A DNA stretch of 64,000 bases from positions 21,931-85,930 of the forward strand of contig PKYG01000095.1 of the NCBI GenBank assembly GCA_003132585.1, given 5' to 3'. Source of the stretch: Actinomycetota bacterium. GTDB taxonomy: Bacteria > Actinomycetota > Thermoleophilia > UBA2241. How positions within the stretch are numbered: position 1 is the stretch's first letter; the number at the start of each line of letters is the position of its first letter. The position numbers and the translations under genes are program-made. The notes under the pieces are model-generated. The model had not been told where the DNA came from. It saw only the letters and a list, made by a program, of their open reading frames with translations, and searched no databases. Below, piece by piece: positions 17,739-33,016 of the stretch.

Positions 17739-18554
17739 CTATCGGGTCACCAAGCCGACGACGATGAGGATGATGACCCACGCCGCCCCGACGCCGACCG
17801 CAACCGCGAACGTCTTGGGGTGGCGAGGAAGCCGCAGCAGCTTCGCGGATGTCGCCGGCGTGTACGCCGCCTCCCCCCCGATCTGGCCAGACGAGACTGC
17901 GACAGCCGCGGCGGGGGTGGCAGGCACGGCCATCTGCTGAGGCTTGGGCGCAGCGGGCTTGGGTGGTGGAGAAGGTTTGGGCGCAGGCGTGCGCGCCGGC
18001 GCCGGCGCAGCCGACTGCGTGTCGACGGGGGGCGCTGTCGGACTTGTGTGCGCGGGGGGCGGGGCCGGAGGTGTGTCCGCTGGCTCCGCCGGTCTCTGCG
18101 TCCGATCGTCTGTCCGCCCCTCCTCGGGCAGCGGCGGCGCCTCGGTCGTCGTCGGCTCGAGCAGGACCGCGATCGCCTCGCAGAGCCGAGCGAGATGGCG
18201 CTCGAGGGGCAGCGTCAGGGCATCGAGCCAGTGCTGGCCGGCGAGGTAGTACTCGAGCCAGTCACTGGGCACTACATCCTCGACACGCAGCGGCAGGATC
18301 GGCAGCGCGCACGAGACGGCCCGGTCGACCTCGCGCTGGACCTGGACGGAGGCGTTCGAGGCCGCCGAGAAGACAAGGACGAAGACGCGCGCCGAGTGGA
18401 TGGCTTCGATGATCATCTGCGCGAAGTTGTGGCCCGGCAGGACGTCGCGAGGAGCGATCCAGCAACGGATGTGCTGGCGTTCGAGCGCTGCGCAGACTGC
18501 GTCGCCGATCGCCTTGTTGTCCGACGCGTAGCTGATGAACACATCGTGCGCCAA
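17739..18554 (-). CDS. TIR-domain protein with a Pro-rich linker and a C-terminal TM anchor
   Basis: TIR_2-like N-terminus DVFISYASDNKAIGDAVCAALERQHIRCWIAPRDVLPGHNF...VFVLVFSAASNASVQVQREVDRAV. C-terminal FAVAVGVGAAWVIILIVVGLV. Confidence 0.7.
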   Translation of the reverse strand: MAHDVFISYASDNKAIGDAVCAALERQHIRCWIAPRDVLPGHNFAQMIIEAIHSARVFVLVFSAASNASVQVQREVDRAVSCALPILPLRVEDVVPSDWLEYYLAGQHWLDALTLPLERHLARLCEAIAVLLEPTTTEAPPLPEEGRTDDRTQRPAEPADTPPAPPPAHTSPTAPPVDTQSAAPAPARTPAPKPSPPPKPAAPKPQQMAVPATPAAAVAVSSGQIGGEAAYTPATSAKLLRLPRHPKTFAVAVGVGAAWVIILIVVGLVTR

Positions 18555-21340: not shown

Positions 21341-21499
21341 GTCCCCAATTCGCCGTCCCACCCCGGTGGTACACTCCAATCATCACTTGTCGCCACACAT
21401 GGCGGCACGCGGGATTTGAAGAGCAGCTTGCAGCCGCGTCACCAACTGCTAAAGCGCCACGGGTTCGCCCGTGGCACCATTCTCTGAAAGGAGAGCGCC
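21341..21499 (+). repeat. Conserved about 155-bp leader element, copy 1 (about 96% identical to 25181-25337), containing the hairpin GCCACGGG-TTCG-CCCGTGGC and an SD
   Basis: Direct nucleotide comparison of the two copies. The hairpin differs by a compensatory C to U (G-U wobble) in copy 2. Confidence 0.6.
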
Positions 21500-21664
21500 A
21501 TGGGTAAGAAGCCACTCTTCCTGATCTCCACCGAGGGCATGACGTTGGAGGAAGCGCAGTCGGCGCTGCGGGCGGCGCTACGCAGCCTGCTGCCGCAGGA
21601 ACCCGCGGAGGGGTCGTCCCTGGAGGAGTCCCCTGCGGAGGAGCCGGACGAAGGCGAGGGATAG
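21500..21664 (+). CDS. Small acidic-tailed protein (54 aa), paralog A1 of 25510-25659. Below the ORF-track length cutoff.
   Basis: MGKKPLFLISTEGMTLEEAQSALRAALRSLLPQEPAEGSS... GAAAGGAGAG SD. The N-terminal 30 aa are conserved between the paralogs. Confidence 0.4.
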   Translation: MGKKPLFLISTEGMTLEEAQSALRAALRSLLPQEPAEGSSLEESPAEEPDEGEG

Positions 21665-21841
21665 TTCCCGGAGGGGCGTCGGCGGTCGGCAAGAAGCTCA
21701 AGATCGAGCTGGACTAGCAGCCGGCCCCTTGACTGTATGTCAAATGTGACATACGCTTCCACCCGTGGGGAGACCTCCCGACAAACCGCTCGTCTGACTG
21801 CGCGGCTACGATGCGCTCGCAAGCGAGAAGGAGTGACCAGC

Positions 21842-22159
21842 ATGGAGAAAGCCAAGAAGGATCGCCTCAAGTCGGCCGGCTGGCGCGTGGGTGACGCGAC
21901 CGAGTTCCTCGAGCTGAGCGCCGAGGAGGCCGCCTTCGTCGAACTGAAGCTGGCGCTCGCCGACTACCTGCGCGAGATCCGCGTACGCAACGAATGGACT
22001 CAGTCCCAGGTGGCTCGCCGACTGGGATCGAGCCAGTCACGAGTCGCGAAGATGGAGGCGGCAGACGCCTCGGTGTCGCTCGATCTCATGGTGAAGTCGC
22101 TGCTCATTCTGGGTGTGTCTCGCAGCGAGGTCGGACGCGTGATCGCCAAGGCGGCGTAG
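21842..22159 (+). CDS. XRE-family HTH transcriptional regulator (antitoxin-like, 105 aa)
   Basis: HTH NEWTQSQVARRLGSSQSRVAKME. AAGGAG SD. The ORF track extends to 21737, but ATG 21842 has the SD. Confidence 0.7.
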   Translation: MEKAKKDRLKSAGWRVGDATEFLELSAEEAAFVELKLALADYLREIRVRNEWTQSQVARRLGSSQSRVAKMEAADASVSLDLMVKSLLILGVSRSEVGRVIAKAA

Positions 22160-22175
22160 CCTCAAGACTGAAGTG

Positions 22176-23585
22176 CTACGCTGGTGCGCCCGGATCCGCG
22201 CTGTCCGTGTGCACCCACACCGTGTGCTTGGCCGCCATCGCGCTCGCCAGTCTGCGCAGGTCGTCAGGCCAGGCGTGGCCGCCGCTGTGGATGAAGTGCG
22301 GTTCGAGACCATGGCGCTTGGCCCATGTGCGCGTCGCGCACCGCTCGCGCGACCAGTACCCGCTCCACATCGACCAGACGAGATCGACCTTCTCCGGCCC
22401 GACCTTGTCGAACACCTTGGTCACGCCGAAGCTGCCGCGACAGCACATGAGATAGCGTCCGGGGTCGGCGGCGAGCTCGTCGCTGGATACCTTGCCCGCG
22501 TCACGCATCTCGATGACGAGGTCCATCTTGCCGGCCTGCTTGAGCAGCTCGACCTGATGAGGCGCGAACAGCACGCGGACCCCGTCCCACGTGAACTGAG
22601 GGATGTTCTTCGACAGAGGCGCCAGCTTCATGAGCACATATGCCTGGTAGGGGTCGATGACGAGCAGGCGATTGCTTCGCTTCGCCGCGCGATAACACGA
22701 GACGAGGCGGTCGACGTTCTGGCCCGACGCCACAACCGCGACGAGCTTCCCCTCCGCGGCGACGAGCTTCCCCTCCGCGGCGAGCTTCGCGCCCTCCGAT
22801 CGCGCCAGCTCGACCAGCTTCTCCTCGACGTCCGCCTCACGACCCAGCCCATGCGTCTCGCCGGATGAGCCCAGCGTCGTGCCCTCGATCAGGAGCCAGT
22901 CGACCCCGCGCAGGCGCTCGTCACTGAGCATGTTCGCGAAGCGGAACCCCGTGCGCCCGTGAGCGCGCAGGTCCCCCGTGTAGAGCAGGCGCTGCCCATC
23001 GGCTTCGATGAGCAGCGCGCGCGAATCCGGCGCCGCGTGGTCGACCGGGATCGCGGTCACCGAGAGGCCCCCGAACCGCAGCGTCTCATCCAACGGCAAC
23101 CGCCGCAGGTCTGCCGGCAGCGCGGAGGCGGGGAAGAACACGCGTCCCACCTCGAGCACCGCGATCGTCCCCTCGCTCCCGTACACCGGGATCGCCGGAT
23201 GCGCATGGTGGGCGAGGCCGTAGTGGTCGAGATGCGAGTGCGTGAGGATGATCGCCGCGACAGCGGGCGCAGTGGGGTCGTGTGGGAACACGCCGGGTAT
23301 GTCGCGCAGGACTCCCTCGGCGATCAGGTCTGCCGTCGGCCGTTGCGGGGTGTCCCACGGGAAGTCACCGCCGCCCGGCGCGGTGAGCGGCATGCCGAGA
23401 TCGAGGAGGATGCGTGTGCCGTCGTCGGCATCGACCTCGATGCACATGCCACCGATCTCATGCTGGCCGCGGTGAATGATGTAGTGCGTGGTGAGCGCCC
23501 CTTGGTGGTTGATGTCAGACCCCAGAAACAGAGTAGCACGGGGGTCTGACGGAGACGGGACGCCGCGGTGCCTGCCCCGGGGCAC
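22176..23585 (-). CDS. MBL-fold metallo-hydrolase, beta-CASP-like (RNA/DNA-processing type)
   Basis: HxHxDH motif THSHLDHYG. Further His/Asp motifs (VDHAAPDS, C-terminal HSGGHAWPDD). In-frame 21-nt tandem duplication (GKLVAAEGKLVA). Start codon uncertain. Confidence 0.7.
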   Translation of the reverse strand: MPRGRHRGVPSPSDPRATLFLGSDINHQGALTTHYIIHRGQHEIGGMCIEVDADDGTRILLDLGMPLTAPGGGDFPWDTPQRPTADLIAEGVLRDIPGVFPHDPTAPAVAAIILTHSHLDHYGLAHHAHPAIPVYGSEGTIAVLEVGRVFFPASALPADLRRLPLDETLRFGGLSVTAIPVDHAAPDSRALLIEADGQRLLYTGDLRAHGRTGFRFANMLSDERLRGVDWLLIEGTTLGSSGETHGLGREADVEEKLVELARSEGAKLAAEGKLVAAEGKLVAVVASGQNVDRLVSCYRAAKRSNRLLVIDPYQAYVLMKLAPLSKNIPQFTWDGVRVLFAPHQVELLKQAGKMDLVIEMRDAGKVSSDELAADPGRYLMCCRGSFGVTKVFDKVGPEKVDLVWSMWSGYWSRERCATRTWAKRHGLEPHFIHSGGHAWPDDLRRLASAMAAKHTVWVHTDSADPGAPA

Positions 23586-23588
23586 AAC

Positions 23589-24635
23589 TCAGGGTAGCTT
23601 CGCGATGAACTCGTCGAGCGGGATGACCTTGTCTGCAAACAGCGCGTAGCCGGCAAACGAGACCGTCGCGACGCTGTAGTCGGCATGTTCACGGAGAGGC
23701 AGCTCCCGCTTCGCGAGTTCCTCGAGTTCGTTCTTCAAGCGCTTCGAAGACGGCTGGTGGTTCGCGAGAACGAAGAGCACCTCCGGTCGCTCACTCACGT
23801 CGTCCTTGGTAATCGTCACGCGCTCCGTCATCCTCTTGGGCAGAGACGGGAGTTTCAGACGTTTCTTGGTCTCGAACATCGCCGCAAGCTCCTGGCGCAG
23901 GAGGTCGAACGGCTTCGAGATCTTCTCACCGGGTTCGGGCGTGAGGAAACGCTCGAAATCGAGCACATGCTTCACCAATCCCGGCGATAGGTCGTCGGGC
24001 TTCTCGCCTTTGCGGCTTGAGGTGATGGCGCCGTCTCCCGCCTTCATCTCCATGATGACCGGGGTCACCTTGCTGTTCGCCCTGCTTCCGCCTGCGACGG
24101 GCCAACGAAACCCGACCATGTCGAAGCGGTAGCCAGTCTCGGTTCTCTGCCCGGGAATGGCATATGCGGACTGAACGTATTCCACGTCGATGACAACGTA
24201 GTCGAAGAGTTCGCCGGTGGAATGGCGATTGTTGTCTCGGACGACTGCCTGCTGGTACTCCTTCTCGATCTTGGTGTTCTCGGAGAACCGGATGTCCATC
24301 GCCTGCTTGATGGCGGCAAAGGCATCGACCCACTCCTGAGCGTTCGCTTCACGCTCAATGGACCCTCTGGGTAGCGACGGCGGCTCGGGGCGGTATCCTT
24401 TAGCGCCGTCGAAGTAGTGCTTGTCGAACTCGGCTGAGAACTTCGTGGCTTCGGCGTTGGATTTGATGCCCAGGAGCCGGCCGCCGCGGTAGTAGAGGTC
24501 TACGTAGCCGTTACGGATTTCCAGGCTGAGCGTGTCGTCATGCCGCACTCGATCGAGGAACGGCAAAAGAACTCCCGACTTGAGCTGTTCCACGAAGACG
24601 TCTGAGATTTCACGCTTAGGACTCTTGTCGACCAT
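23589..24635 (-). CDS. Hypothetical protein (349 aa) with a putative PD-(D/E)xK nuclease-like core. First gene of a two-gene operon with the MBL hydrolase (4-nt gap).
   Basis: Candidate motif ...YRFDMVGFRW...VTPVIMEMKAG (D...ExK). GGGGGGA SD. GC about 58% against about 69% in flanking DNA. Confidence 0.55.
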   Translation of the reverse strand: MVDKSPKREISDVFVEQLKSGVLLPFLDRVRHDDTLSLEIRNGYVDLYYRGGRLLGIKSNAEATKFSAEFDKHYFDGAKGYRPEPPSLPRGSIEREANAQEWVDAFAAIKQAMDIRFSENTKIEKEYQQAVVRDNNRHSTGELFDYVVIDVEYVQSAYAIPGQRTETGYRFDMVGFRWPVAGGSRANSKVTPVIMEMKAGDGAITSSRKGEKPDDLSPGLVKHVLDFERFLTPEPGEKISKPFDLLRQELAAMFETKKRLKLPSLPKRMTERVTITKDDVSERPEVLFVLANHQPSSKRLKNELEELAKRELPLREHADYSVATVSFAGYALFADKVIPLDEFIAKLP

Positions 24636-24757
24636 GTCATCCCCCCATCTCGATATGGTTTGGAGTATATGCGGGTATGGCCTTGCGGGCTGAAGGAGCG
24701 CAGTTCGTGGTCGCGGGGTTCGCACAACTTCAACGCGTGAGACAAGGAGCGTAACGG

Positions 24758-25153
24758 GTGGAACACTTGGGGGATCCAGAGGTTCTCAGCAGCGCCGTCA
24801 ATGACGTGGTGCTTGGGTACCTGCGCGACCTCTCAGCCCACAGTGACGTAGCGGAAGCTCTCCTGGAAGCGGTCGCCCCCTTGGGGGACGTACAGAGCTA
24901 CTGTCCCGATCTATCTCAGTATCGCTACGTCGCAGTCGCCACTCGTGGCGTGGTCTTCGGCTTTGCCGTCGGCATGGCGACCGTTGGCTTTCGGCTGAGT
25001 CCCGAGTTCAAGCTGCGCGCCCTGGCGACCGGCGCCGAGGACCTCGTGCAGGCGGGACCCGAGTGGGTCGGGATCGAGCTCTTTCGCAACGACTGGCCCG
25101 ATCCCGACCTCAAGTTCTGGGCGCTGAGAGCATATGTGTACGCGCGTGAGTGA
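24758..25153 (+). CDS. Hypothetical protein (131 aa), divergent from the 23589-24635 operon
   Basis: GTG start with an AAGGAG SD. No recognised motif. Confidence 0.45.
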   Translation: MEHLGDPEVLSSAVNDVVLGYLRDLSAHSDVAEALLEAVAPLGDVQSYCPDLSQYRYVAVATRGVVFGFAVGMATVGFRLSPEFKLRALATGAEDLVQAGPEWVGIELFRNDWPDPDLKFWALRAYVYARE

Positions 25154-25180
25154 CCTCTAGTCTAGCCGCCAATCGCTTCC

Positions 25181-25337
25181 CCCCGATTCGCCGTCCCACC
25201 CCGGTGATACACTCCGATCATCACTTGTCGCCACACATGGCGGCACGCGGGATTTGAAGAGCAGCTTGCAGCCGCGTCACCAACTGCTAAAGCGCCATGG
25301 GTCCGCCCGTGGCACCATTCTCTGAAAGGAGAGCGCC
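25181..25337 (+). repeat. Conserved leader element, copy 2
   Basis: See 21341-21499. Here the leader is separated from its small ORF by about 170 bp of unrelated sequence. Confidence 0.6.
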
Positions 25338-25509
25338 ATGGGAAGAGCCGAGCAAGACACCCCGCGCGAGGACATCACCAAGCAACTGAGCGTTGGCGTC
25401 GTGCACCCCGATACAGGCTTCTTGGTCGCGGGTCGGCGGAGATCCCCGGCATCGCCATCCACATGGCGTTCAAGCACTGTCCCGATTTCTTCGAGAGGAG
25501 GAGTGAACC

Positions 25510-25659
25510 ATGAAGAAACCACTCTTCCTGATCTCCACCGAGGGCATGACGCTGGAGGAAGCGCAGTCGGCGTTGCGGGCGGCGTTCCGTAGCCTGCTGC
25601 CGTCAGAGCCCGCGGAGGAGTCGCCTCCGGAGGAGCCGGACCAGGACCCACAGCCGTGA
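25510..25659 (+). CDS. Small acidic-tailed protein (49 aa), paralog A2 of 21500-21664
   Basis: MKKPLFLISTEGMTLEEAQSALRAAFRSLLPSEPAEESPPEEPDQDPQP. GAGGAGGAG SD. Confidence 0.4.
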   Translation: MKKPLFLISTEGMTLEEAQSALRAAFRSLLPSEPAEESPPEEPDQDPQP

Positions 25660-25660
25660 C

Positions 25661-25966
25661 AGGCTGGTCCGACCGGACTTCTGCATAGGGACCGATCGCT
25701 TCCACACGGCGGCTGCCCTTGCCCGGCCGCTAGAGTCGGGTTTCAAGGCGGAGGGTCTCAAGGTGGAGCGCGATCGTCCGTTTGCGGGAACGCTCGTCCC
25801 GCACGAGTTTCTCGGAGTCGAGAGCGCCGTGCAGTCGGTCATGATCGAGGTGCGGCGCGGTCTGTACTGTGATGAGCCGACAGGTGAGCGCAGCGCCGGC
25901 TTCGCTGCCACGCGCGACGCGGTGAAGTGGGCCGTGAGGGCTGGGGTGGAATCCGTTCTGCCGTGA
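25661..25966 (+). pseudogene. C-terminal about 100-codon fragment of an N-formylglutamate amidohydrolase-like gene. The 5' part is missing.
   Basis: In-frame translation ...GTDRFHTAAALARPLESGFKAEGLKVERDRPFAGTLVPHEF...SVMIEVRRGLYCDE matches the FGase C-terminal region. No N-terminal half upstream; the upstream sequence is repeat copy 2. Confidence 0.45.
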
Positions 25967-26221: not shown

Positions 26222-28072
26222 TTGAGTCTGGGGGGCCTGTTGGCAGCCACACTCTTCAAGGAAGTCAGCTACACACTCTCCAAGCTCATCGAAGACATCG
26301 ACATGGGCGAGATTGGCCTTCCCGAAATCCAACGGCCGTTCATCTGGAAGAACTCCAAGGTGCGCGATCTCTTCGATTCCATGTACCGAGGCTTCCCCGT
26401 GGGCTACCTTCTGTTCTGGCAGAGCATCGCGAACGGTTACAAGCAGATCGGCCAGGGCGAGAAGCAGAAGTACCCGCGCCTGCTCATCGTCGACGGGCAG
26501 CAGCGTCTCACTTCGTTGTTCGCCGTTCTCAAGTGTGCACCGGTTCTCCGCGATGACTACCGCGCCGAGCGTATCCGCATCGCCTTTCGGCCTAAGGATG
26601 TGACCTTCGAGGTCACCGATGCCGCTATCGAGAAGGACGCCGAGTTTCTGCCAGACATCAGCTCTCTCTGGTCTAAGGAGAGCGGCCGAAAAAAGACAGT
26701 GACCGCGTTCTTCACCCGACTCCGCGAACGTCGCGAGTTGTCGCCCGACGAAGAGGAGCAGCTCGAGGAAGCCATCGACCGCGTTTACGATTTGCAGCAC
26801 TATCCGTTCACAGCTTTGGAGCTCTCGGGCACCGTTGGCGAAGAGGAAGTCGCTGACGTCTTTGTGCGGATCAACAGCAAGGGAATGACGCTCAACCAGG
26901 CGGACTTCATCCTCACGCTGATGTCCGTCTTCTGGGATGAGGGCCGCAAGGAGCTGGAAACCTTCTGCCGCGCGGCTCGAACACCAACCAGTGGCGCGGC
27001 GTCTTCCTTCAACTACTTCATCCAACCGGATCCAGACCAACTCCTTCGTGTGAGCGTCGCACTGGGGTTCCGCAGAGCGCGGCTCCAGTACGTTTATTCG
27101 CTGCTCCGCGGAAAAGATCTGGAGACCGGCGAGTTCTCGGACGACCGACGGGACGAGCAGTTCAAGGTGCTGCAGCAGGCGCAGAGCTACGCACTCAAAT
27201 GTCAGAACTGGCACGAGTTCTTCAAGGCGATCATGACCGCCGGCTACAGGAGCGGCGGCATGGTCTCTTCCGAGATCGGCCTCCTGTACGCCTATGCGCT
27301 CTACCTCATCGGGCTGCGCGATTTCCACGTCGACCACTTCGAGCTGCGGCAGGTCATCGCTCGCTGGTACTTCATGACCGCGGTGACTGGACGTTACAGC
27401 TCAAGTCCAGAGACCACCATGGATCAGGACCTGGCGCGACTGCGCGAAGCACATGGCGCCAGAGGGTTCGTCGAGGCGTTGGACGCCATGATCGCCGAGC
27501 GTTTCACCGAGGATTTCTGGACCCTCAATCTGCCGCGCGACCTGGCCACGTCTGCCTCGCGCGGACCCACACTGTTTGGCTACTACGCCGCTCTGAACCT
27601 AGTTGGGGCCAAGGTCCTGTTCTCACAGATGACGGTGCACGAGCTTCTGGACCCCAGCACCGCAGCGAACAAGGCTGCGCTCGAGCGTCACCATCTCTTT
27701 CCCAAGGGCTATCTCCGCACCATGGGCATCACAGACACGCGCGAGACGAACCAGGTCGCCAACTTCGCCCTGGTCGAGTGGGCCGACAACATCGGTATCT
27801 CAGACACGGCCCCAGTCGACTATTTCTCCGGTTACGCCGGGCGATTCCCCAACGACGAGCTGCGCTCCATGATGTACTGGCATGCGCTCCCGGAGGACTG
27901 GGTCCACATGACATACGCTGACTTTCTGGCGGCCCGCCGTGAGGGCATCGCGCTCGTCATGCGCGACGGCTTCGCGCGCCTGAAAGGCGGTAAGGGCGTC
28001 AATGCCGATTCTGCGCCGACATCGTCCGCTGCACCCTCGGAGCAAGCGGAGACAGCGGCGTTCGAGATCTAA
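26222..28072 (+). CDS. GmrSD-family type IV (modification-dependent) restriction endonuclease-like protein, DUF262 + DUF1524
   Basis: DUF262 motifs EIQRPFIW and [15 protein letters not shown]-terminal DUF1524 His-Me finger region [12 protein letters not shown]...[13 protein letters not shown] start; see finding on the alternative ATG at 26182. Confidence 0.8.
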
Positions 28073-28074
28073 CG

Positions 28075-29721
28075 ATGGCCGCGAAGCAGAGGACGAACAA
28101 CGGCGCCAACGTCGGCTTCGAAGAGAAGCTCTGGGCCGCCGCCGACAAGATGCGGGGCCACCTCGACCCCGCCGAGTACAAGCACGTCGCGCTGGGGCTC
28201 ATCTTCCTCAAGTACATCTCCGACTCGTTTGAAGAGCTGCACAAGAGATTGATCGCCCAGGCGCAGAGCGAGTGGGAACAAGCCGCGCAAGAGGCCGCCG
28301 CGCACGGCCAGGACCCCGACAAGCTCCGCGAATCCTGGTCCGCCGCCACCGACCCGGAAGACCGCGACGAGTACACTGCCGAGAACGTCTTTTGGGTGCC
28401 GCAGCCGGCCCGCTGGAGCTACCTGCAAGACAACGCCAAGCAACCGACCGTCGGCAAGCTCATCGACGACGCCATGGACGCAATCGAGCACGAGAACCCG
28501 GGCCTGCGCGGCGTGCTGCCCAAGCGCTACGCGCGCGAAGACCTCGACAAGCGCCGCCTCGGTGAGCTCATCGATCTGATCGGCAATATCTCGATGGGCG
28601 ACACCGAGTCGAAGTCCAAGGACGTGCTCGGGCGTGTGTACGAGTACTTCCTCGGCCGCTTCGCCAGTGCCGAGGGCAAAGGCGGCGGCGAGTTCTACAC
28701 GGCTCGCTGCGTGGTCAAGCTGCTGGTCGAGATGATCGAGCCCCTGCACGGGCGCGTGTACGACCCCTGTTGCGGCTCGGGCGGCATGTTTGTGCAAAGC
28801 GAACGCTTCGTCGAGGCACACGGCGGCCACAAGGGCGACATCTCGCTCTACGGGCAAGAGAGCAACCCGACCACCTGGCGCCTTGCCAAGATGAACTTGG
28901 CCATCCGCGGGCTCGACGGCGATCTGGGGCCGCAGCCGGCCGACACCTTCCACAACGACGTGCACAACGACCTGAAGGCCGACTTCATCCTCGCCAACCC
29001 GCCCTTCAACGTGAGCGATTGGGGCGGCGGCGCCCTGCGCGACAACGTGCGCTGGAAGTTCGGCGCGCCGCCGGTAGGCAATGCCAACTTCGCCTGGGTT
29101 CAGCACTTCGTCCACCACCTGGCGCCGCAGGGCGTGACCGGCTTCGTGCTCGCCAACGGCTCGATGAGCTCGCAGCAGAGCGGGGAGGGAGAGATCCGCA
29201 AGCAGATCGTCGAGGCCGACCTGGTCGATTGCATGATCGCCCTGCCGGGACAGCTCTTCTACACGACTCAGATCCCCGTGTGCCTGTGGTTCCTGGCGCG
29301 CGACAAGAGCGATGGAGGAGGTGGGAGCGGCGGTCGCGGAAGCGACCGCCGCTCCCAGACCCTCTTCATCGACGCCCGCCAGATGGGCGCCATGGTCGAT
29401 CGCACTCACCGCGAGCTGACCGACGACGACATCGCTCGCATCGCTCGCGCCTACCACGCCTGGCGTGGCGAGGACGGCGCGGGCGACTACGAGGACATCC
29501 CCGGCTTCTGCAAGAGCACCACCACCGAGCAGATCACCGAGCACGGCTACGTGCTCACCCCCGGCCGCTACGTCGGCGCCGCCGACGCCGAAGGCGACGG
29601 CGAGCCCTTCGACGAGAAGATGAAGCGCCTGACGGCGGAGTTGCGCGAACAGTTCGCGGAGTCGGCGAGACTGGAGGAGGAGATCAGGGCGAACCTCGGG
29701 CGCTTGGGCTATGAGCTCTGA
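28075..29721 (+). CDS. hsdM: Type I restriction-modification system DNA methyltransferase subunit
   Basis: N6-adenine MTase motifs, including [14 protein letters not shown] and NPPFN. Confidence 0.9.
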
Positions 29722-30989
29722 GGACTGGCGAACCGCTTCGTTCCGCGACCTGATCGCCAACGGCGTTCTCCTAATCGGCGACGGCTATCGCGCCAAGAAC
29801 AGCGAGCTCGGCGGCGAGGGGCCCATCTTCCTTCGGGCAGGCCATGTCAGAAACACGCACATCGAGTTCGATGCTGCCGACCACTTCGTCGCCGAACTGA
29901 CACCCAAGCTCAAGGCAAAGATGTCGCGTGCCGGCGATGTCGTCGTGACGACGAAAGGCAACAGCACCGGGCGCGTGACCTTCGTCAGCGGCGAGATGCC
30001 GCCGTTCATCTACTCACCGCATCTCAGCTATTGGCGCTCGCTCGACCATCACGCATTGCACCCGGGCTTCCTACGCTACTGGTCTCGCAGTCGCGAGTTC
30101 CGCACTCAGCTAGCTGGCTTCGCCGCTCAGACCGACATGGCTCCCTTCATCAGTCTGCGCGACCAGCAACGCCTTCAGATCACGCTTCCGCCTCCGTCGG
30201 TTCAGCAATCCATCGCGGTGACACTCGGCGCTCTCGACGACAAGATCGAGCTAAATCGCCGCATGAACCGCACCCTCGAGTCGATAGCCCGCGCCATCTT
30301 CAAGTCGTGGTTCGTCGACTTTGATCCAGTGCGGCAGAAGATGGAGGGCGGCGAGCTTCTCAGAATCAAGGTTGGGACCCATCCCGACGGGCTGGGATGT
30401 GGCCGCAATTGGCGATGTCGTCGCAGTCATTGGCGGTTCGACACCAAGCACGAAGGAGCCGGCGTATTGGGGCGGCGAGATCGCCTTTGCGACGCCTCGG
30501 GACATGGCTCAGTTGACAGCTCCCGCTCTGAGGGCGACGGAGCGGCGAGTCACTCCTGAAGGTGCAGCCACCATCAGTTCCGGGCTGCTACCGCCAGGCG
30601 CCGTACTCATGTCATCCAGAGCACCGATAGGCTATCTGGCAATCACCGAGATTCCCGTGTGTGTCAACCAGGGCTTCATCGCGATGCTGGCGGAGTCGGC
30701 GCTACCTGCCCTCTACGTTCTGAACTGGGCGCGTGAGAACATGGAGACCATCGTCGCCAGCGCAAATGGCACTACCTTCCTCGAGATCAGCAAGCGCAGC
30801 TTCCGGCCACTGCTCATCGCGGTACCGCCAGATGAGGTTCTGAACACATTCGTTGACGTTGCGACTTCGCTGCATCGACGCGTCGTCAGCGGTCTCGACG
30901 AGAACGACCTTCTCTGCGCGACGAGAGATCGACTTCTGTCCGCGCTCCTCCGGGGGCATCGGGGGACGCAGGAGCTACCTCATGATTGA
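29711..30989 (+). pseudogene. hsdS: Type I RM specificity subunit, frameshifted around 30355-30375. TRD1 plus the central conserved region are in one frame and TRD2 in the +1 frame.
   Basis: Frame A carries TRD1 and the conserved ...LDDKIELNRRMNRTLESIARAIFKSWFVDFDP. Frame B (ORF 30321-30989) continues with LGPIPTGWDVAAIGDVV... (TRD2). Could be a sequencing error or a functional half-HsdS. Confidence 0.6.
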
Positions 30990-32727
30990 CCCGGTAACCG
31001 CATTGGCCGTCTCGATGAATGCCAGCCCAGGTGTGTATGCGCTGTTACTGGGGTCGGGGGTTTCAAAGGCAGCGGGAATCCCGACGGGTTGGGAAATCGT
31101 CCAGGACTTGACGGGACGCCTCGCTGTCGCCGAGGGCGAAGATGTGGGCGGCGATGCCATCGGGTGGTATGTGTCGCGCTATGAGCGGGAGCCGGACTAC
31201 GACGTTCTGCTCGAGGAACTCGCTCCGCTGCCGTCAGAACGGAATCGGTTGCTCCGCGCGTACTTCGAGCCCTCGGAGGAGGAGCGGGAGCAGGGGCTGA
31301 AGCAACCGACGGAGGCACATCGCGCAGTCGCCGAATTGGTGCGCCGGGGCTACGTCCGAATCGTAATCACCACAAACTTCGACCGTCTCCTTGAGCGCGC
31401 TCTCGATGAAGCTGGCGTGTCGGCCACAGTCGTTTCGTCTGGTGATGATGTCGACGGACTTCTGCCGCTCGACCATTCAAGCTGCACCATTGTCAAAGTC
31501 CACGGCGACTACCTCGACACCCGCATCAAGAACACCGAGCGGGAACTCAGGACCTACGACCCGCGTATCGACTCCCTTCTGGATCGCGTGTTTGACGACT
31601 ACGGTCTGATCGTATGCGGCTGGTCAGCGAAGTACGACAAGGCTTTGCGCGCCGCGATAGCGCGGTGTCCGTCGCGGCGGTTCTCAACGCACTGGGCAGC
31701 GCGTGGGAAGTTGGGAGTGTCTGCTGAGCGCCTTGCGACAGCGCGCGACGGGCACATTGTAGCCATCGAGAGCGCTGATAGCTTCTTCGCAGAGCTCCTG
31801 GAGCGAGTGACAGCCCTGGCCGACGCTGAGGAAGATCCGATGTCTGCCCGAGTCGCCGTAGCCCGGTTGAAGCGCTACCTGCCTGTGCCCGATGCCAGGA
31901 TTCGGCTGCACGACTTGGTCTCCCAGGGCACGGAGGACTTGCGGGGCCGTTTGACGTCGAAGGAGTTCCCTCTGAGTTCGCCCCCTCCGACTCCCGAGGC
32001 CGTTCTCCAACGCATGAAGGCCTTCGATGCCGCATCGGATATCGTGGCCCGTCTGGCCGCGGTCGGGGCATTCCATGGGCGCCCGGAGCAAGAGGAAGTC
32101 TGGGTGCGGATGCTTCAACGGGTGGCGGAGCTTGATGAGGTTGAAGGGCAACGTCTAGTGGTCTGGGACAGCCTCCGCTTGTATCCGGCTCTTGTCTTGA
32201 TGTACGCCGCCGGGATCGCCGCCGTTGCCTCCGGTCACTTCTCGGTGCTTGAGTCGCTGGCGCAGCGGGTGAGGATCGATGATGAAGCGCTAGTCAGGAA
32301 GCTGTACACGTGGTCGGTTCTGGACGATCGCTTGGCGAAGCAGATTCCGGGACTTGAGCGCCGCCACACGCCGGTCAGCGACCACCTGTATGCGGCGCTG
32401 CGCGATGCCATGCGCGACATTCTCCCGTCTGACCAGGAGTACGCTGCCGCATTCGACCGGTTTGAGTACTTGTGGGCGTTGATGCACGTTGATGCAACAC
32501 TCGGGACAGACCACTGGCATGATGGGTGGGGGCCAGTTGGCAGGTTTGGATGGCGCCGCCGCCCGAGTGGCGAGCGTGAGCCTGCAGTTGTTGGGCGCGA
32601 GCTGGAACGACAAGGAGAAGCATGGCCACCGCTCGCCGCGGGTCTGTTCGGCGGTTCGTTGGACAGGCTCAACGAGGTGAAAACCGCTTTCGACGCGTTC
32701 GTGTCGAAGCTCGGCATGGCGTTCTAG
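30982..32727 (+). CDS. SIR2-like (SIR2_2 / DHS-like NAD-binding) domain protein (581 aa) with an uncharacterised helical C-terminal half
   Basis: LLLGSGVSKAAGIPTGWEI...VRIVITTNFDRLLERA...IVKVHGDY...LIVCGWS. ATG overlaps the hsdS stop (ATGATTGA). Confidence 0.7.
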   Translation: MIDPVTALAVSMNASPGVYALLLGSGVSKAAGIPTGWEIVQDLTGRLAVAEGEDVGGDAIGWYVSRYEREPDYDVLLEELAPLPSERNRLLRAYFEPSEEEREQGLKQPTEAHRAVAELVRRGYVRIVITTNFDRLLERALDEAGVSATVVSSGDDVDGLLPLDHSSCTIVKVHGDYLDTRIKNTERELRTYDPRIDSLLDRVFDDYGLIVCGWSAKYDKALRAAIARCPSRRFSTHWAARGKLGVSAERLATARDGHIVAIESADSFFAELLERVTALADAEEDPMSARVAVARLKRYLPVPDARIRLHDLVSQGTEDLRGRLTSKEFPLSSPPPTPEAVLQRMKAFDAASDIVARLAAVGAFHGRPEQEEVWVRMLQRVAELDEVEGQRLVVWDSLRLYPALVLMYAAGIAAVASGHFSVLESLAQRVRIDDEALVRKLYTWSVLDDRLAKQIPGLERRHTPVSDHLYAALRDAMRDILPSDQEYAAAFDRFEYLWALMHVDATLGTDHWHDGWGPVGRFGWRRRPSGEREPAVVGRELERQGEAWPPLAAGLFGGSLDRLNEVKTAFDAFVSKLGMAF

Positions 32728-32740
32728 CGGGAGGCACTAC

Positions 32741-33016
32741 GTGAACGGCAAGACCATCCGCATCTTCCTCGCCGACGGCGAGCCGACCGGTATCCTCCTC
32801 GCCGAGGCCAGCAACTGGACCGGCGAGGTCATCGTCGCGCCGCGCTCGCAGCTCGATCAGCTCAGCAAACGCGAGGAGGTGCGCCGCACCGGCGTCTACC
32901 TGCTCGTCGGTCCCGACTCCGACGATTGCCCGCGGAAGCCGGTCACCATGGATGAGGGTGGGGGACTGCGCAAAAGGCGACTGGCCAATCGCGTCAGGGA
33001 AGGATGCCATGGCTGA
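32741..33016 (+). pseudogene. N-terminal fragment of a GIY-YIG/DUF4357-like gene whose GIY-YIG core is missing
   Basis: MNGKTIRIFLADGEPTGILLAEASNWTGEVIVAPRSQLDQLSKREEVRRTGVYLLVGPDSDD, then out-of-family sequence. A matching downstream fragment (VVIVSKDENLTKSH) lies about 1 kb away, near 33900-33945. Confidence 0.45.

Follow-up and report, generated by a model that had tools for sequence, protein, structure and literature searches.

Nucleases of the RNase J, SNM1/Artemis and CPSF73 class depend on metal and act both as endonucleases and as 5'-to-3' exonucleases that require a 5'-phosphate, and a histidine at β-CASP motif C is of the RNase J/CPSF73 type. Among anti-phage systems, the metallo-β-lactamase (MBL) fold is found in Avs/Hachiman modules (HamMAB), where MBL-fold DNase effectors are activated by proteolysis; these MBL proteins are zymogens encoded beside genes for trypsin-, caspase- or subtilisin-like proteases (PMC12642450, PMC12799240, PMC13069673). 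PD-(D/E)xK effectors are represented by HamA (Hachiman), SduA (Shedu) and Upx, and the type IV enzymes GmrSD, Mrr and McrBC are nucleases that act without a cognate methyltransferase. Here we analyse a locus within a 64,000-nucleotide stretch of DNA (the window) in which these two nuclease folds are combined. The functional unit is a two-gene operon, consisting of gene 1 and gene 2 alone; an XRE-family gene, the orf131 gene and the flanking repeats are local neighbours.

23589..24635, minus strand: gene 1, a 348-aa PD-(D/E)xK-fold protein, core component of the conserved pair
22176..23585, minus strand: gene 2, a β-CASP metallo-β-lactamase-fold nuclease (469-aa ORF), second core component

Comparison with described systems

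The likeness to HamMAB-type modules lies in an anti-phage effector with an MBL-fold nuclease, but the partner of gene 2 is itself a nuclease, gene 2 is a canonical β-CASP protein and no protease is linked to the pair in any of the loci compared, only gene 1 and the MBL gene recurring. A protease-MBL defence module was therefore rejected. Gene 1 has no sequence relationship to HamA, SduA or Upx detectable with PADLOC or Pfam, possesses N-terminal and C-terminal domains of its own and, unlike these effectors, has a β-CASP nuclease partner; Hachiman was discarded because a HamB-type helicase is not conserved beside gene 1 and the HamA HMM was unmatched. The type IV nucleases resemble the pair in lacking a cognate methyltransferase and in their defence-island setting, with GmrSD directly adjoining here, yet GmrSD, Mrr and McrBC are not homologous to either gene. 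Classical restriction-modification was also rejected, since no methyltransferase cluster co-occurs with the pair.

With RNase J, TTHA0252, CPSF73, SNM1A/Artemis and EF2904, gene 2 shares the MBL motifs, all three β-CASP motifs (A, B, C) and a fold of two domains. It lacks the C-terminal domain of RNase J and differs from the known β-CASP nucleases in that it shares an operon with a gene for a PD-(D/E)xK protein and lies in accessory regions of the genome. A Firmicute member of the family was no closer to 2az4 (EF2904, uncharacterised) than to RNase J. Similarity to Cas14 of type VII CRISPR-Cas was weak (NCBIfam, E 0.0018) and confined to the MBL core, and, in contrast to Cas14 systems, the locus contains neither cas genes nor a CRISPR array. 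At E <= 0.01, PADLOC-DB v2.0.0 returned no family for gene 1 or gene 2 among described or candidate systems, which counts against a defence reading, and we found no description of the pair in the searchable literature.

Gene 1 is a predicted PD-(D/E)xK nuclease

The gene 1 product begins with an N-terminal α/β domain (residues ~1-95), continues with a nuclease core (~96-205) and ends in a C-terminal extension. The core has the α-β-β-β-α-β arrangement that the PD-(D/E)xK superfamily requires, with the D ... (D/E)-x-K signature on strands 2 and 3 and a glutamate in helix 1. Across 78 homologues of 26-80% identity, residues E124, E126, D150, E152, D172, E196 and K198 are at least 97% conserved; the catalytic positions are retained almost without exception (D172, K198 and E124 in 77/78 each, E196 in 76/78). 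Gene 1 is thus a predicted PD-(D/E)xK nuclease with a complete active site of the DNA-endonuclease type. It matched no Pfam, NCBIfam, PADLOC or PHROG model and belongs to no curated PDDEXK sequence family, while one relative (P0254) gave a sub-threshold match to PDDEXK_9 (19.8 bits, cut-off 25.5). The N-terminal domain resembles YjbR, the MotA C-terminal domain and frataxin-like proteins. These are small nucleic-acid or ligand-binding folds.

Gene 2 is a predicted β-CASP nuclease, and RNA is a candidate substrate

The GTG start of gene 2 lies 3 nt past the gene 1 stop. The stretch shared with homologues begins near 23489, so that the protein may be ~435-469 aa long. Profile searches matched Pfam Lactamase_B_2 (E 9e-18), PDB 2az4 (E 6.6e-25) and RNase J, with no match to Pfam Beta-Casp or RMMBL. 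In full-length Foldseek comparisons the AF2 model (pLDDT 82) gave TM-scores of 0.55-0.71 to 2az4, RNase J, TTHA0252, CPSF3 and Ysh1, with 0.6-0.71 for the first four; the alignments span 455-512 columns among the 50 matches listed and show a β-CASP domain inserted in the MBL fold. Across 50 homologues, conservation of MBL motifs 1-4 (D62, H116xH118xD120H121, H183 and D205) ranges from 94 to 100%, and in the same set β-CASP motifs A (E234), B (H433/H437, HSGGHA) and C (H459, VHTD) are 100% conserved, the C-terminal motifs aligning to 2az4. Judged by its motifs and modelled fold, gene 2 is predicted to be a true β-CASP MBL nuclease. Both enzyme assignments in the initial annotation, a candidate PD-(D/E)xK core in gene 1 and a β-CASP MBL nuclease in gene 2, are therefore borne out by motif and by fold. 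The label of RNase J given to gene 2 in the JGI annotation was rejected as a statement of orthology (TIGR00649, 33 bits against 400; RNase_J1, 16.9 against 820).

An RNA substrate is no less compatible than DNA with the histidine at motif C, a point that counts against the anti-foreign-DNA reading given below. It is possible, although in our estimate unlikely, that the pair is an RNA-targeting abortive-infection module in which the β-CASP RNase would attack phage or host transcripts and gene 1 would sense infection or license the RNase. RNase J, TTHA0252 and CPSF3, the neighbours of gene 2 in sequence and fold, all act on RNA, motif C has His without exception, the weak NCBIfam matches are to RNase J and Cas14, and the Cas14 RNase is the sole β-CASP nuclease that we found in the searchable defence literature. 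Against this, gene 1 keeps its complete DNA-endonuclease-type active site, where it has another partner this is a nuclease of DNA type (REase-ARP, HD) or a DEDD exonuclease, and β-CASP enzymes with DNA substrates exist, as the SNM1A matches of gene 2 illustrate. Such a module would still be defensive, with another substrate and another logic.

The gene pair is the conserved unit

An MBL homologue adjoins gene 1 in the same orientation in 52-54 of 79 loci from many phyla, including Actinomycetota, Proteobacteria, Firmicutes, Chloroflexi, Planctomycetota, Myxococcota and CPR. Where both genes are full length they are always co-oriented (49/49), typically with a gap of ~10 nt. Across the loci compared only these two genes recur and no third gene is kept with them. 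The MBL partner is missing from about a quarter to a third of gene 1 loci, which counts against the reading favoured here. REase-ARP/PDDEXK_13 replaces it in 6-7 loci, HD or Nmad3 proteins are further partners, and in P0329 gene 1 is fused to an RNase_T exonuclease. In addition, the phylogeny of the MBL protein disagrees with that of gene 1: three loci (L025, L049 and L066) have MBL proteins of 65-67% identity but gene 1 proteins of only 31-33%. These partner swaps and discordant phylogenies indicate a modularity typical of defence systems. The family is rare and horizontally scattered. It had 93 matches in 185,579 species genomes, 1.84 billion representatives yielded ~1,500 clusters (50% identity), and there was no match in 50,697 phage records or 72,556 plasmid records.

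The surroundings of the pair are mostly defensive or mobile. In the window it lies near GmrSD, HsdM/HsdS (type I R-M), SIR2 and TIR genes, as expected from the defence island proposed initially, and there is a PADLOC match to HEC-05 in the GmrSD/HsdM neighbourhood (26222-29721).

26222..28072, plus strand: GmrSD (Pfam GmrSD_N, E 1e-31), context outside the pair
28075..29721, plus strand: HsdM (HsdM_N and N6_Mtase in L001), context outside the pair

Elsewhere the pair usually sits beside R-M, CBASS, BREX, Abi, PARIS or MADS genes and integrases, for example CBASS, BREX and an integrase (L085), AbiE, HNH, NACHT and an integrase (L083), an integrase and Mrr (L084), or type I R-M with Dnd-associated genes (L086). 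Among 130 immediate neighbours in 40 loci, mostly MAG contigs, raw counts without a formal background statistic were four for MADS and three each for AriA/PARIS, AbiL and OLD-type ATPase-Toprim; type I REase, HerA, RmrA and WYL/WCX regulators were also present. Some gene 1 loci are not obviously defensive: in Anaerocolumna xylanovorans (L016), an unpaired gene 1 has FBPase and a two-component system as neighbours.

Overall, gene 1 and gene 2 form a plausible new two-nuclease phage-defence family. The most likely reading, to which we give about an even chance of being right, is an innate anti-phage, anti-foreign-DNA nuclease system. Gene 1, a PD-(D/E)xK endonuclease with an extra N-terminal α/β domain, would recognise and cut invading nucleic acid, and its β-CASP partner would next degrade the nucleic acid so cut, giving an endonuclease-then-exonuclease order in which DNA, or possibly RNA, would be the substrate and self would be spared. 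Across loci the pair keeps no component, cognate methyltransferase or other, that would protect the host and account for the discrimination of self from non-self, R-M neighbours being occasional; we count this against the defence reading.

The lack of a conserved methyltransferase is also what would be expected of modification-dependent (type IV-like) restriction, in which the gene 1 N-terminus would read a modified base, the core would cut and the β-CASP protein would serve as an accessory processing nuclease. GmrSD adjoins the pair both here and in L044, gene 1 lies beside the nucleotide-modification-associated Nmad3 in L045 and beside REase-ARP in several loci, and the YjbR-, MotA- and frataxin-like character of the N-terminal domain would suit such a role. 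We nevertheless consider this version of events distinctly unlikely.

Neighbouring genes, repeats and the insertion model

The initial annotation had treated the whole segment between the repeats as an acquired low-GC islet, with the repeats as its boundaries and XRE as regulator of the nuclease operon.

21343..21664, plus strand: repeat copy 1, with a -10-like box (TACACT), a structured leader (21386-21508) and a 54-aa acidic ORF-B (21500-21664)
21735..21754, unstranded: perfect palindrome GTATGTCA-N4-TGACATAC upstream of XRE
21842..22159, plus strand: XRE-family HTH gene, 105 aa (Pfam HTH_31, HTH_3, HTH_37), convergent with gene 2
24636..24757, unstranded: intergenic region from which gene 1 and orf131 diverge, as the sequence itself shows
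24758..25153, plus strand: orf131, a lineage-specific ORF divergent from gene 1
25181..25659, plus strand: repeat copy 2, with the same leader (25224-25346), a 170-nt small-gene remnant (25338-25509) and a 49-aa ORF-B (25510-25659)
25700..25966, plus strand: 3' fragment of an N-formylglutamate amidohydrolase (FGase) pseudogene, profile positions 166-218 of 219 (Pfam, E 3.9e-7)

The gene order, with XRE facing the minus-strand operon, orf131 diverging from it, a small ORF in each repeat and a C-terminal FGase fragment past the right-hand copy, was confirmed. The regulatory role was not. XRE is convergent with the operon rather than divergent from it, and the palindrome, its likely auto-operator, matches nowhere else in the 64 kb even when 3 mismatches are allowed. 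No copy occurs in region 24636-24757, which presumably holds the putative promoter of the nuclease operon; with the palindrome unique to XRE's own promoter, nothing shows that XRE regulates the nucleases. Homologues of XRE turned up in L106 and L033 alone; the one in L033 has 69% identity and lies 2 kb from the MBL gene. The orf131 product is unrelated to gene 1 and had no family match in profile searches; beyond the same organism, its sole counterpart was in L108, where it occupies the same position and has 83% aa identity. Essentially all other loci lack XRE, orf131 and the repeats, each of which is lineage-specific. The antiphage module proposed at the outset is thus supported in part: the pair, which matched nothing in PADLOC-DB or the searchable literature, forms an operon across phyla and lies mostly in defence or mobile contexts, but XRE, orf131 and the repeats do not belong to it.

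The repeats were described as ~320-bp direct repeats. They are indeed direct repeats, matching at 97% over 162 nt (21343-21504 against 25181-25342) and at 89% over 123 nt (21506-21628 against 25513-25635), but their lengths are ~308 and ~478 nt, with ~170 extra nt in copy 2 separating the leader ATG from the small ORF. A 32-nt leader probe occurred exactly twice in 64 kb against zero expected. The same cassette of promoter, structured 5'-UTR and small gene is found elsewhere in relatives ahead of other genes, and also behind a PhdYefM-ParE pair. The two repeats are paralogues, each a copy of a lineage-specific cassette that joins a regulatory leader RNA to a small gene. They do not mark the ends of an insertion in the manner of att sites or target duplications.

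Low GC content holds for gene 1 (59.2%) and orf131 (63.6%) but not for the MBL gene (68.4%), with XRE at 64.8%, and the segment as a whole (21341-25659) has 63.9% against 65.9% in the window, 68.5% in the left flank and 63.2% in the right flank. We hold it to be rather improbable that the 21.3-25.7 kb segment arrived as one discrete insertion, mobile or recombinational, bounded by the repeats, regulated by XRE and truncating the FGase gene on arrival. Such an insertion would explain the flanking direct repeats and the truncated FGase gene abutting the right copy, and it is possible that the FGase gene was destroyed by an insertion. The segment could be lost or transferred if the repeats recombined with each other, and 7/7 related ORF-B contigs break within 165 nt after ORF-B, which suggests strain-variable DNA downstream. 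However, the segment contains no recombinase ORF, whether integrase or transposase, and no att-like short repeat; the repeats are 300-480-nt functional cassettes that also precede other genes; GC content does not change abruptly at the right-hand repeat; and the XRE operator is missing from the operon promoter. In L108 (84% nucleotide identity), gene 1, orf131 and leader are already present in the same order. The expected empty site was not found either, all contigs with the identical upstream PD40 gene, in a thin sample, also bearing the islet.

Repair and toxin-antitoxin readings

SNM1/Artemis-like end or crosslink processing together with a structure-specific nuclease such as NucS could also constitute an accessory DNA-repair or recombination module of flexible regions, with no role in defence. 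This seems very unlikely to us: the family is extremely sparse and patchy, it recurs beside R-M, Abi, CBASS, BREX and integrase genes, and neither ligase, Ku nor helicase is conserved with the pair across loci. The TA-like alternative raised initially is highly improbable, whether XRE or the other protein of the pair were the antitoxin to a nuclease toxin, because both proteins are large enzymes (348 and ~435-469 aa) with intact catalytic sites and XRE, which is not conserved with the pair, has no small cognate toxin beside it, even though XRE resembles HipB/HigA-type antitoxins at low score and TA pairs lie nearby in relatives. XRE was rejected as a type II antitoxin, its upstream neighbour being the 54-aa ORF-B, which has no toxin-family match, and its downstream neighbour the convergent MBL gene.

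The leader RNA

The leader RNA weakly resembles SAM-II aptamers. Its core, CGCGG-GAUUUGA...GCUUGCAGCC-GCG...GCUAAAG, aligns end to end with RF00521 and RF01726 and contains the most conserved SAM-II nucleotides (GAUUUGA, GCUUGCAGCC and GCUAAAG) as well as the P1 helix. Its scores lie below the Rfam gathering thresholds (RF00521, 20.0-20.7 bits against 36; RF01726, 19.5-20.4 against 44). The second pseudoknot helix is not evident, the leader has extra 5' and 3' hairpins, and the genes downstream encode small unknown proteins, whereas SAM-II aptamers precede Met/SAM genes; the host lineage, apparently Actinomycetota, is a further difference. All 13 sequences compared keep the P1 pairs (24-28/50-54), which are invariant and so give no covariation. 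A candidate 5-bp loop-tail pairing is likewise invariant but broken in one variant. In this lineage the cassette is placed at junctions with variable cargo.

Organization of the segment

Four genes sit between the two copies of the repeat in the 21341–25659 segment, encoding an XRE HTH regulator, a β-CASP metallo-β-lactamase (MBL)-fold nuclease (gene 2), a PD-(D/E)xK-fold protein (gene 1) and a 131-aa protein (orf131). Each repeat copy comprises a leader RNA and a small ORF (ORF-B).

21386–21508, structured leader RNA, repeat copy 1
21500–21664, small ORF of repeat copy 1, 54 aa
21842–22159, plus strand, XRE HTH gene, 64.8% GC
22176–23585, minus strand, MBL-fold gene (gene 2), 68.4% GC
23589–24635, minus strand, gene 1, 59.2% GC, stop codon 3 nt ahead of the GTG of the MBL ORF
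24758–25153, plus strand, orf131, 63.6% GC
25224–25346, structured leader RNA, repeat copy 2
25510–25659, small ORF of repeat copy 2, 49 aa
After repeat copy 2, the last 75–85 codons of an N-formylglutamate amidohydrolase (FGase) gene, matching positions 166–218 of the 219 in the Pfam FGase profile

The FGase fragment is followed by GmrSD and HsdM genes. The initial annotation had treated the whole segment as a low-GC islet, a description that holds for 23.4–25.0 kb only, the segment as a whole having a GC content of 63.9% compared with 65.9% for the window. Comparison with the left (68.5%) and right (63.2%) flanks revealed no compositional boundary at the right-hand repeat. Simple scans for σ70 promoters and terminators were uninformative in such high-GC DNA.

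Gene 1 encodes a predicted PD-(D/E)xK nuclease

We aligned 78 members of the gene 1 family from many phyla (26–80% identity). Each of the residues E124, E126, D150, E152, D172, E196 and K198 is found in 76 or more of these sequences, and D172...E196-x-K198 is placed on strands 2 and 3, matching the canonical motif. Since the motif residues are both conserved and canonically placed, the initial assignment of FDMVGF...IMEMKAG as the PD-(D/E)xK core holds, and the gene product is, as predicted from its sequence, in all likelihood an active nuclease. No match was found in Pfam, NCBIfam, PADLOC or PHROG, and a profile sequence search of the PDB returned only noise. A word-indexed search gave 116 homologues, none of them named, and a profile run against 1.84 billion representatives retrieved 1,515 clusters at E ≤ 1e-3, including 446 at E ≤ 1e-30. 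Among the relatives P0254, P0321, P0342 and P0349, some carry N-terminal extensions of about 200 residues without a Pfam match, and others have C-terminal extensions of about 150–200 residues; the only extension in the family that could be identified is that of P0329, an RNase_T exonuclease.

Gene 2 encodes a β-CASP nuclease

The product of gene 2 matches Pfam Lactamase_B_2 (E 9e-18), and its NCBIfam matches, to RNase J, the ligase-associated exonuclease and Cas14, are weak and far under the cut-offs. A profile of the gene 2 family retrieved PDB entry 2az4 (EF2904, function unknown; E 6.6e-25), the match covering the C-terminal HSGGHA...VHTD segment, followed by RNase J, TTHA0252 and SNM1A. 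The structural model (pLDDT 82) aligned over its full length with 2az4 (TM 0.69–0.71) and also with archaeal and bacterial RNase J, TTHA0252, CPSF3 and Ysh1. In 50 homologues with 27–75% identity, MBL motifs 1–4 and β-CASP motifs A (E234), B (H433/H437) and C (H459) are conserved at 94–100%. Gene 2 thus encodes a genuine β-CASP nuclease, and the two-nuclease reading of the initial annotation is right in this respect too. The protein is not an RNase J orthologue, given that its NCBIfam RNase J score is far under the cut-off, and the data do not support EF2904 as a solved member of the family.

Homologues of gene 2 begin with M-(R/H)-Y-x-I-H-R-G. The window has T-T-H-Y there, with no canonical start codon and an ACG at the position of the homologues' ATG, and translation probably begins upstream, from the GTG at 23585, as it does in P0118, the closest relative. 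An 8-bp-stem hairpin, CAGACCCC...GGGGTCTG, lies at 23515–23547 (minus strand), in the stretch separating the stop codon of gene 1 from the conserved MBL start. At 22738–22779 the MBL gene contains an exact 21-bp tandem duplication encoding AEGKLVA twice, in a linker of the β-CASP region; the insertion is common only to P0118.

The nuclease genes are linked in many phyla and gene 1 exchanges partners

A scan of 185,579 species, with one genome for each, gave 93 confirmed gene 1 relatives, which span Actinomycetota, several proteobacterial classes, Firmicutes, Chloroflexi, Planctomycetota and Myxococcota as well as Acidobacteriota, Omnitrophota, Peribacteria and others. Cultured strains with the family include Desulfobulbus alkaliphilus DSM 24258 and Ca. 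Nitrotoga fabula; tblastn searches for gene 1 in phage and plasmid collections gave no match in either. An MBL homologue adjoins gene 1 in 52–54 of 79 loci. All 49 full-length pairs are co-oriented, with gene 1 leading in 36 and the MBL gene in 13, and the spacer is typically about 10 nt.

Clustering of all ORFs within 5 kb revealed no third conserved gene beside the pair. Outside the window the XRE gene was found only in locus L033 and orf131 only in L108, and the small ORF was restricted to the window's own lineage, which removes orf131 from the proposed module. A relationship between orf131 and the N-terminal domain of gene 1 was also rejected (hhalign probability 0.2%), and neither orf131 nor the small ORFs matched Pfam, NCBIfam, PADLOC or PHROG. 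Control of the nucleases by the XRE protein, as had been suggested, found no support either. The XRE gene and the operon are convergent, and the perfect palindrome belonging to XRE, GTATGTCA-N4-TGACATAC at 21735–21754, is unique in the window, so that on present evidence we reject the XRE protein as the operon regulator.

In loci without an MBL gene, the partner of gene 1 is a REase-ARP/PDDEXK_13 nuclease in L026, L042, L051, L054, L071 and L019, L019 also having an HD protein as partner; Nmad3 takes this place in L045, and HsdR or GmrSD neighbours gene 1 in L014 and L044. In P0329 the gene 1 relative is itself fused to the RNase_T exonuclease. The MBL proteins of L025, L049 and L066 are 65–67% identical to that of the window, whereas the adjacent gene 1 proteins are only 31–33% identical; together with the 9-point difference in GC content between the two genes in the window, this sequence evidence indicates that the two halves of the pair have been reshuffled by recombination across phyla. 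The interchangeable partners of gene 1 constitute a natural experiment on effector swapping by defence modules.

Genomic context and possible function of the pair

In the window, the neighbours of the pair are GmrSD, type I restriction-modification (R-M), SIR2 and TIR genes, and metagenome contigs of up to 691 kb carry the same locus with HsdS, SIR2 and TIR genes nearby. Coordinates mapped from the gene calls of contig L001 place a TIR-domain protein gene at 17739–18554 (minus strand) and a SIR2_2 protein gene at 31178–32923 (plus strand); as these flank the locus, together with GmrSD and type I R-M, the region 17–33 kb can be regarded as a defence island. Elsewhere the pair lies beside Patatin-SMODS CBASS, BREX and an integrase (L085); AbiEi, HNH, a NACHT STAND protein, Fic, HipA and an integrase (L083); an integrase with DnaB-like and Mrr/M78 genes (L084); or HsdR, a helicase and Dnd-associated genes (L086). 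A qualitative census with PADLOC and Pfam of the 130 nearest neighbours in 40 genome loci, made without a matched background, included MADS components (4), AriA (3), AbiL (3), OLD-type ATPase-Toprim (3), type I REase (2), HerA (2), RmrA (2) and WYL/WCX regulators. Counter-examples include Anaerocolumna xylanovorans, where a lone gene 1 is found beside FBPase and a two-component system. The HsdS gene next to the pair (29711–31185 in the window; 3450–4925 in L001, L002 and L003) encodes 229 aa, 126+282 aa or 439 aa in otherwise identical contigs of the same organism, which may reflect specificity-subunit shuffling or assembly variation.

As judged from their sequences, each of the two genes encodes an intact predicted nuclease active site; they are closely linked in an operon, and their distribution is accessory and associated with defence. 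The best reading is that the pair represents a new family of two-nuclease defence systems, and we consider a role in defence probable. RNase J and SNM1A are 5′-phosphate-dependent 5′-to-3′ exonucleases, and, with regard to the substrate, the histidine of β-CASP motif C is an RNA-type residue. Gene 1 might be pictured as an endonuclease that recognizes or cuts, with the β-CASP enzyme as a degrading exo- or endonuclease; this logic of an endonuclease plus a second nuclease fits the alternative partners of gene 1 and the DEDD fusion, but we regard this specific mechanism as speculative and rather doubtful. Self nucleic acid might be spared, as one option, if the system depended on modification in the manner of type IV enzymes.

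Neither protein is covered by a model in PADLOC-DB v2. Our searches of the openly searchable literature for MBL or β-CASP proteins in defence returned MBL-fold DNases only as protease-activated effectors, in HamMAB and Avs modules (PMC12642450, PMC12799240, PMC13069673), and Cas14 of type VII CRISPR as the sole β-CASP nuclease. On these grounds the pair is an undescribed candidate system. The sequence features first reported were largely right. Of their interpretation, the two nucleases and their novelty stand; what was proposed for the limits of the islet, its regulator and the additional ORF proved wrong or unsupported. If the pair protects against phages, it would provide a new defence family, a new effector class (β-CASP) and a clear endonuclease-plus-exonuclease architecture, and with about 1,500 clusters and members in cultured strains it is directly testable.

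The repeats as putative regulatory cassettes

The repeat finder resolved two blocks, one of 162 nt (21343–21504 and 25181–25342, 97% identity) and one of 123 nt (21506–21628 and 25513–25635, 89%), and a 32-nt leader probe occurs exactly twice in the 64 kb, where no occurrence was expected. Pairwise alignment showed that copy 2 has about 170 nt, absent from copy 1, between the leader ATG and the small ORF; because copy 1 lacks this stretch, its leader ATG runs straight into codon 2 of the small ORF in the same reading frame. The extra segment (25338–25509) is not an intact gene (GC3 0.65, two frames). It matches two separated pieces, in two frames, of a 110–137-aa protein that is intact in contigs L103 and L110 (motifs EDITKQLSFG and FMGFRHCPGFYER), and by this sequence comparison it is a degenerate remnant of such a gene. 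The small acidic protein itself gave only six clusters, all close relatives, and is not a widespread family.

The repeats had been taken as the boundaries of a discrete mobile insertion, for which they are not evidence. When contigs with an identical flank at PD40, the gene upstream of the segment, were looked up, all carried the segment, and no empty site was found. L108 (84% nucleotide identity) preserves the order gene 1–orf131–leader. In related contigs the leader and ORF-B follow a PhdYefM–ParE pair, and those with both elements (L092, L093, L098–L100, L104, L105 and L107) all end within about 165 nt after ORF-B, which suggests either that DNA varying between strains adjoins the cassette or that the element exists in several copies and so disrupts assembly. 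We regard the repeats as paralogous, putatively regulatory cassettes that belong to the window's lineage and lie at junctions with variable cargo; through homologous recombination between them the segment could be gained or lost.

A candidate cis-regulatory RNA in the leader

The leader, which is also present in L094–L110, comprises a −10-like TACACT box, hairpin H1, a core (CGCGG-GAUUUGAAGAGCAGCUUGCAG-CCGCG...CUGCUAAAG), hairpin H3 and an anti-SD/SD stem. In 13 distinct variants the proposed pairs form at 97%, compared with 25–61% for slid partners, and compensatory changes occur in three pairs, in H1 and H3. In all 13 variants the 3′ strand of H3 can instead pair with the GCCAUGG start-codon region, an alternative that, from its sequence, looks like a translational switch. 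At gathering thresholds Rfam gave no match in the window; the core aligned over the full length of both SAM-II models (RF00521 and RF01726) but below threshold, at about 20 bits (E 0.017–0.026 for the searched region). With R1, a covariance model of the leader, neither the rest of the window nor 17 other actinobacterial gene 1 loci yielded another copy, and a link between the leader and the nuclease pair elsewhere was rejected on this basis.

A 25-nt leader core retrieved 17 metagenome contigs. In related metagenome contigs the leader precedes at least six unrelated small genes, encoding ORF-B, the 110–137-aa protein (EDITKQLSFG...FMGFRHCPGFYER), zinc-ribbon proteins, a HEAT-repeat protein and others, none with a known function. 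In L102 the ORF after the leader encodes a 190-aa multi-CxxC zinc-ribbon protein, whose match to the Lar restriction-alleviation protein is borderline (28.3 bits against a cut-off of 28.6), a hint that genes under the leader's control may be related to genetic conflict. We propose the leader as a candidate new riboswitch-like element, a well-defined cis-regulatory RNA candidate with a SAM-II-like core, yet with unrelated small genes downstream in a defence island. If its ligand were SAM, or a metabolite related to SAM, cofactor levels would be tied to conflict genes. The leader merits follow-up of its own, separate from the pair.

Taken jointly, the nucleases and the leader could be read as follows, although we place this combined reading slightly short of an even chance. 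The pair would belong to a new, phylum-spanning innate anti-phage family in which gene 1 is a PD-(D/E)xK 'hub' with interchangeable second nucleases (mostly β-CASP, with REase-ARP, HD or a fused DEDD exonuclease in its place at other loci), and for the first time outside type VII CRISPR a β-CASP enzyme would be seen to serve immunity on its own; in addition, the flanking repeat would contain a new SAM-II-like riboswitch class in Actinomycetota that switches translation of variable small conflict genes via an anti-start-codon helix.
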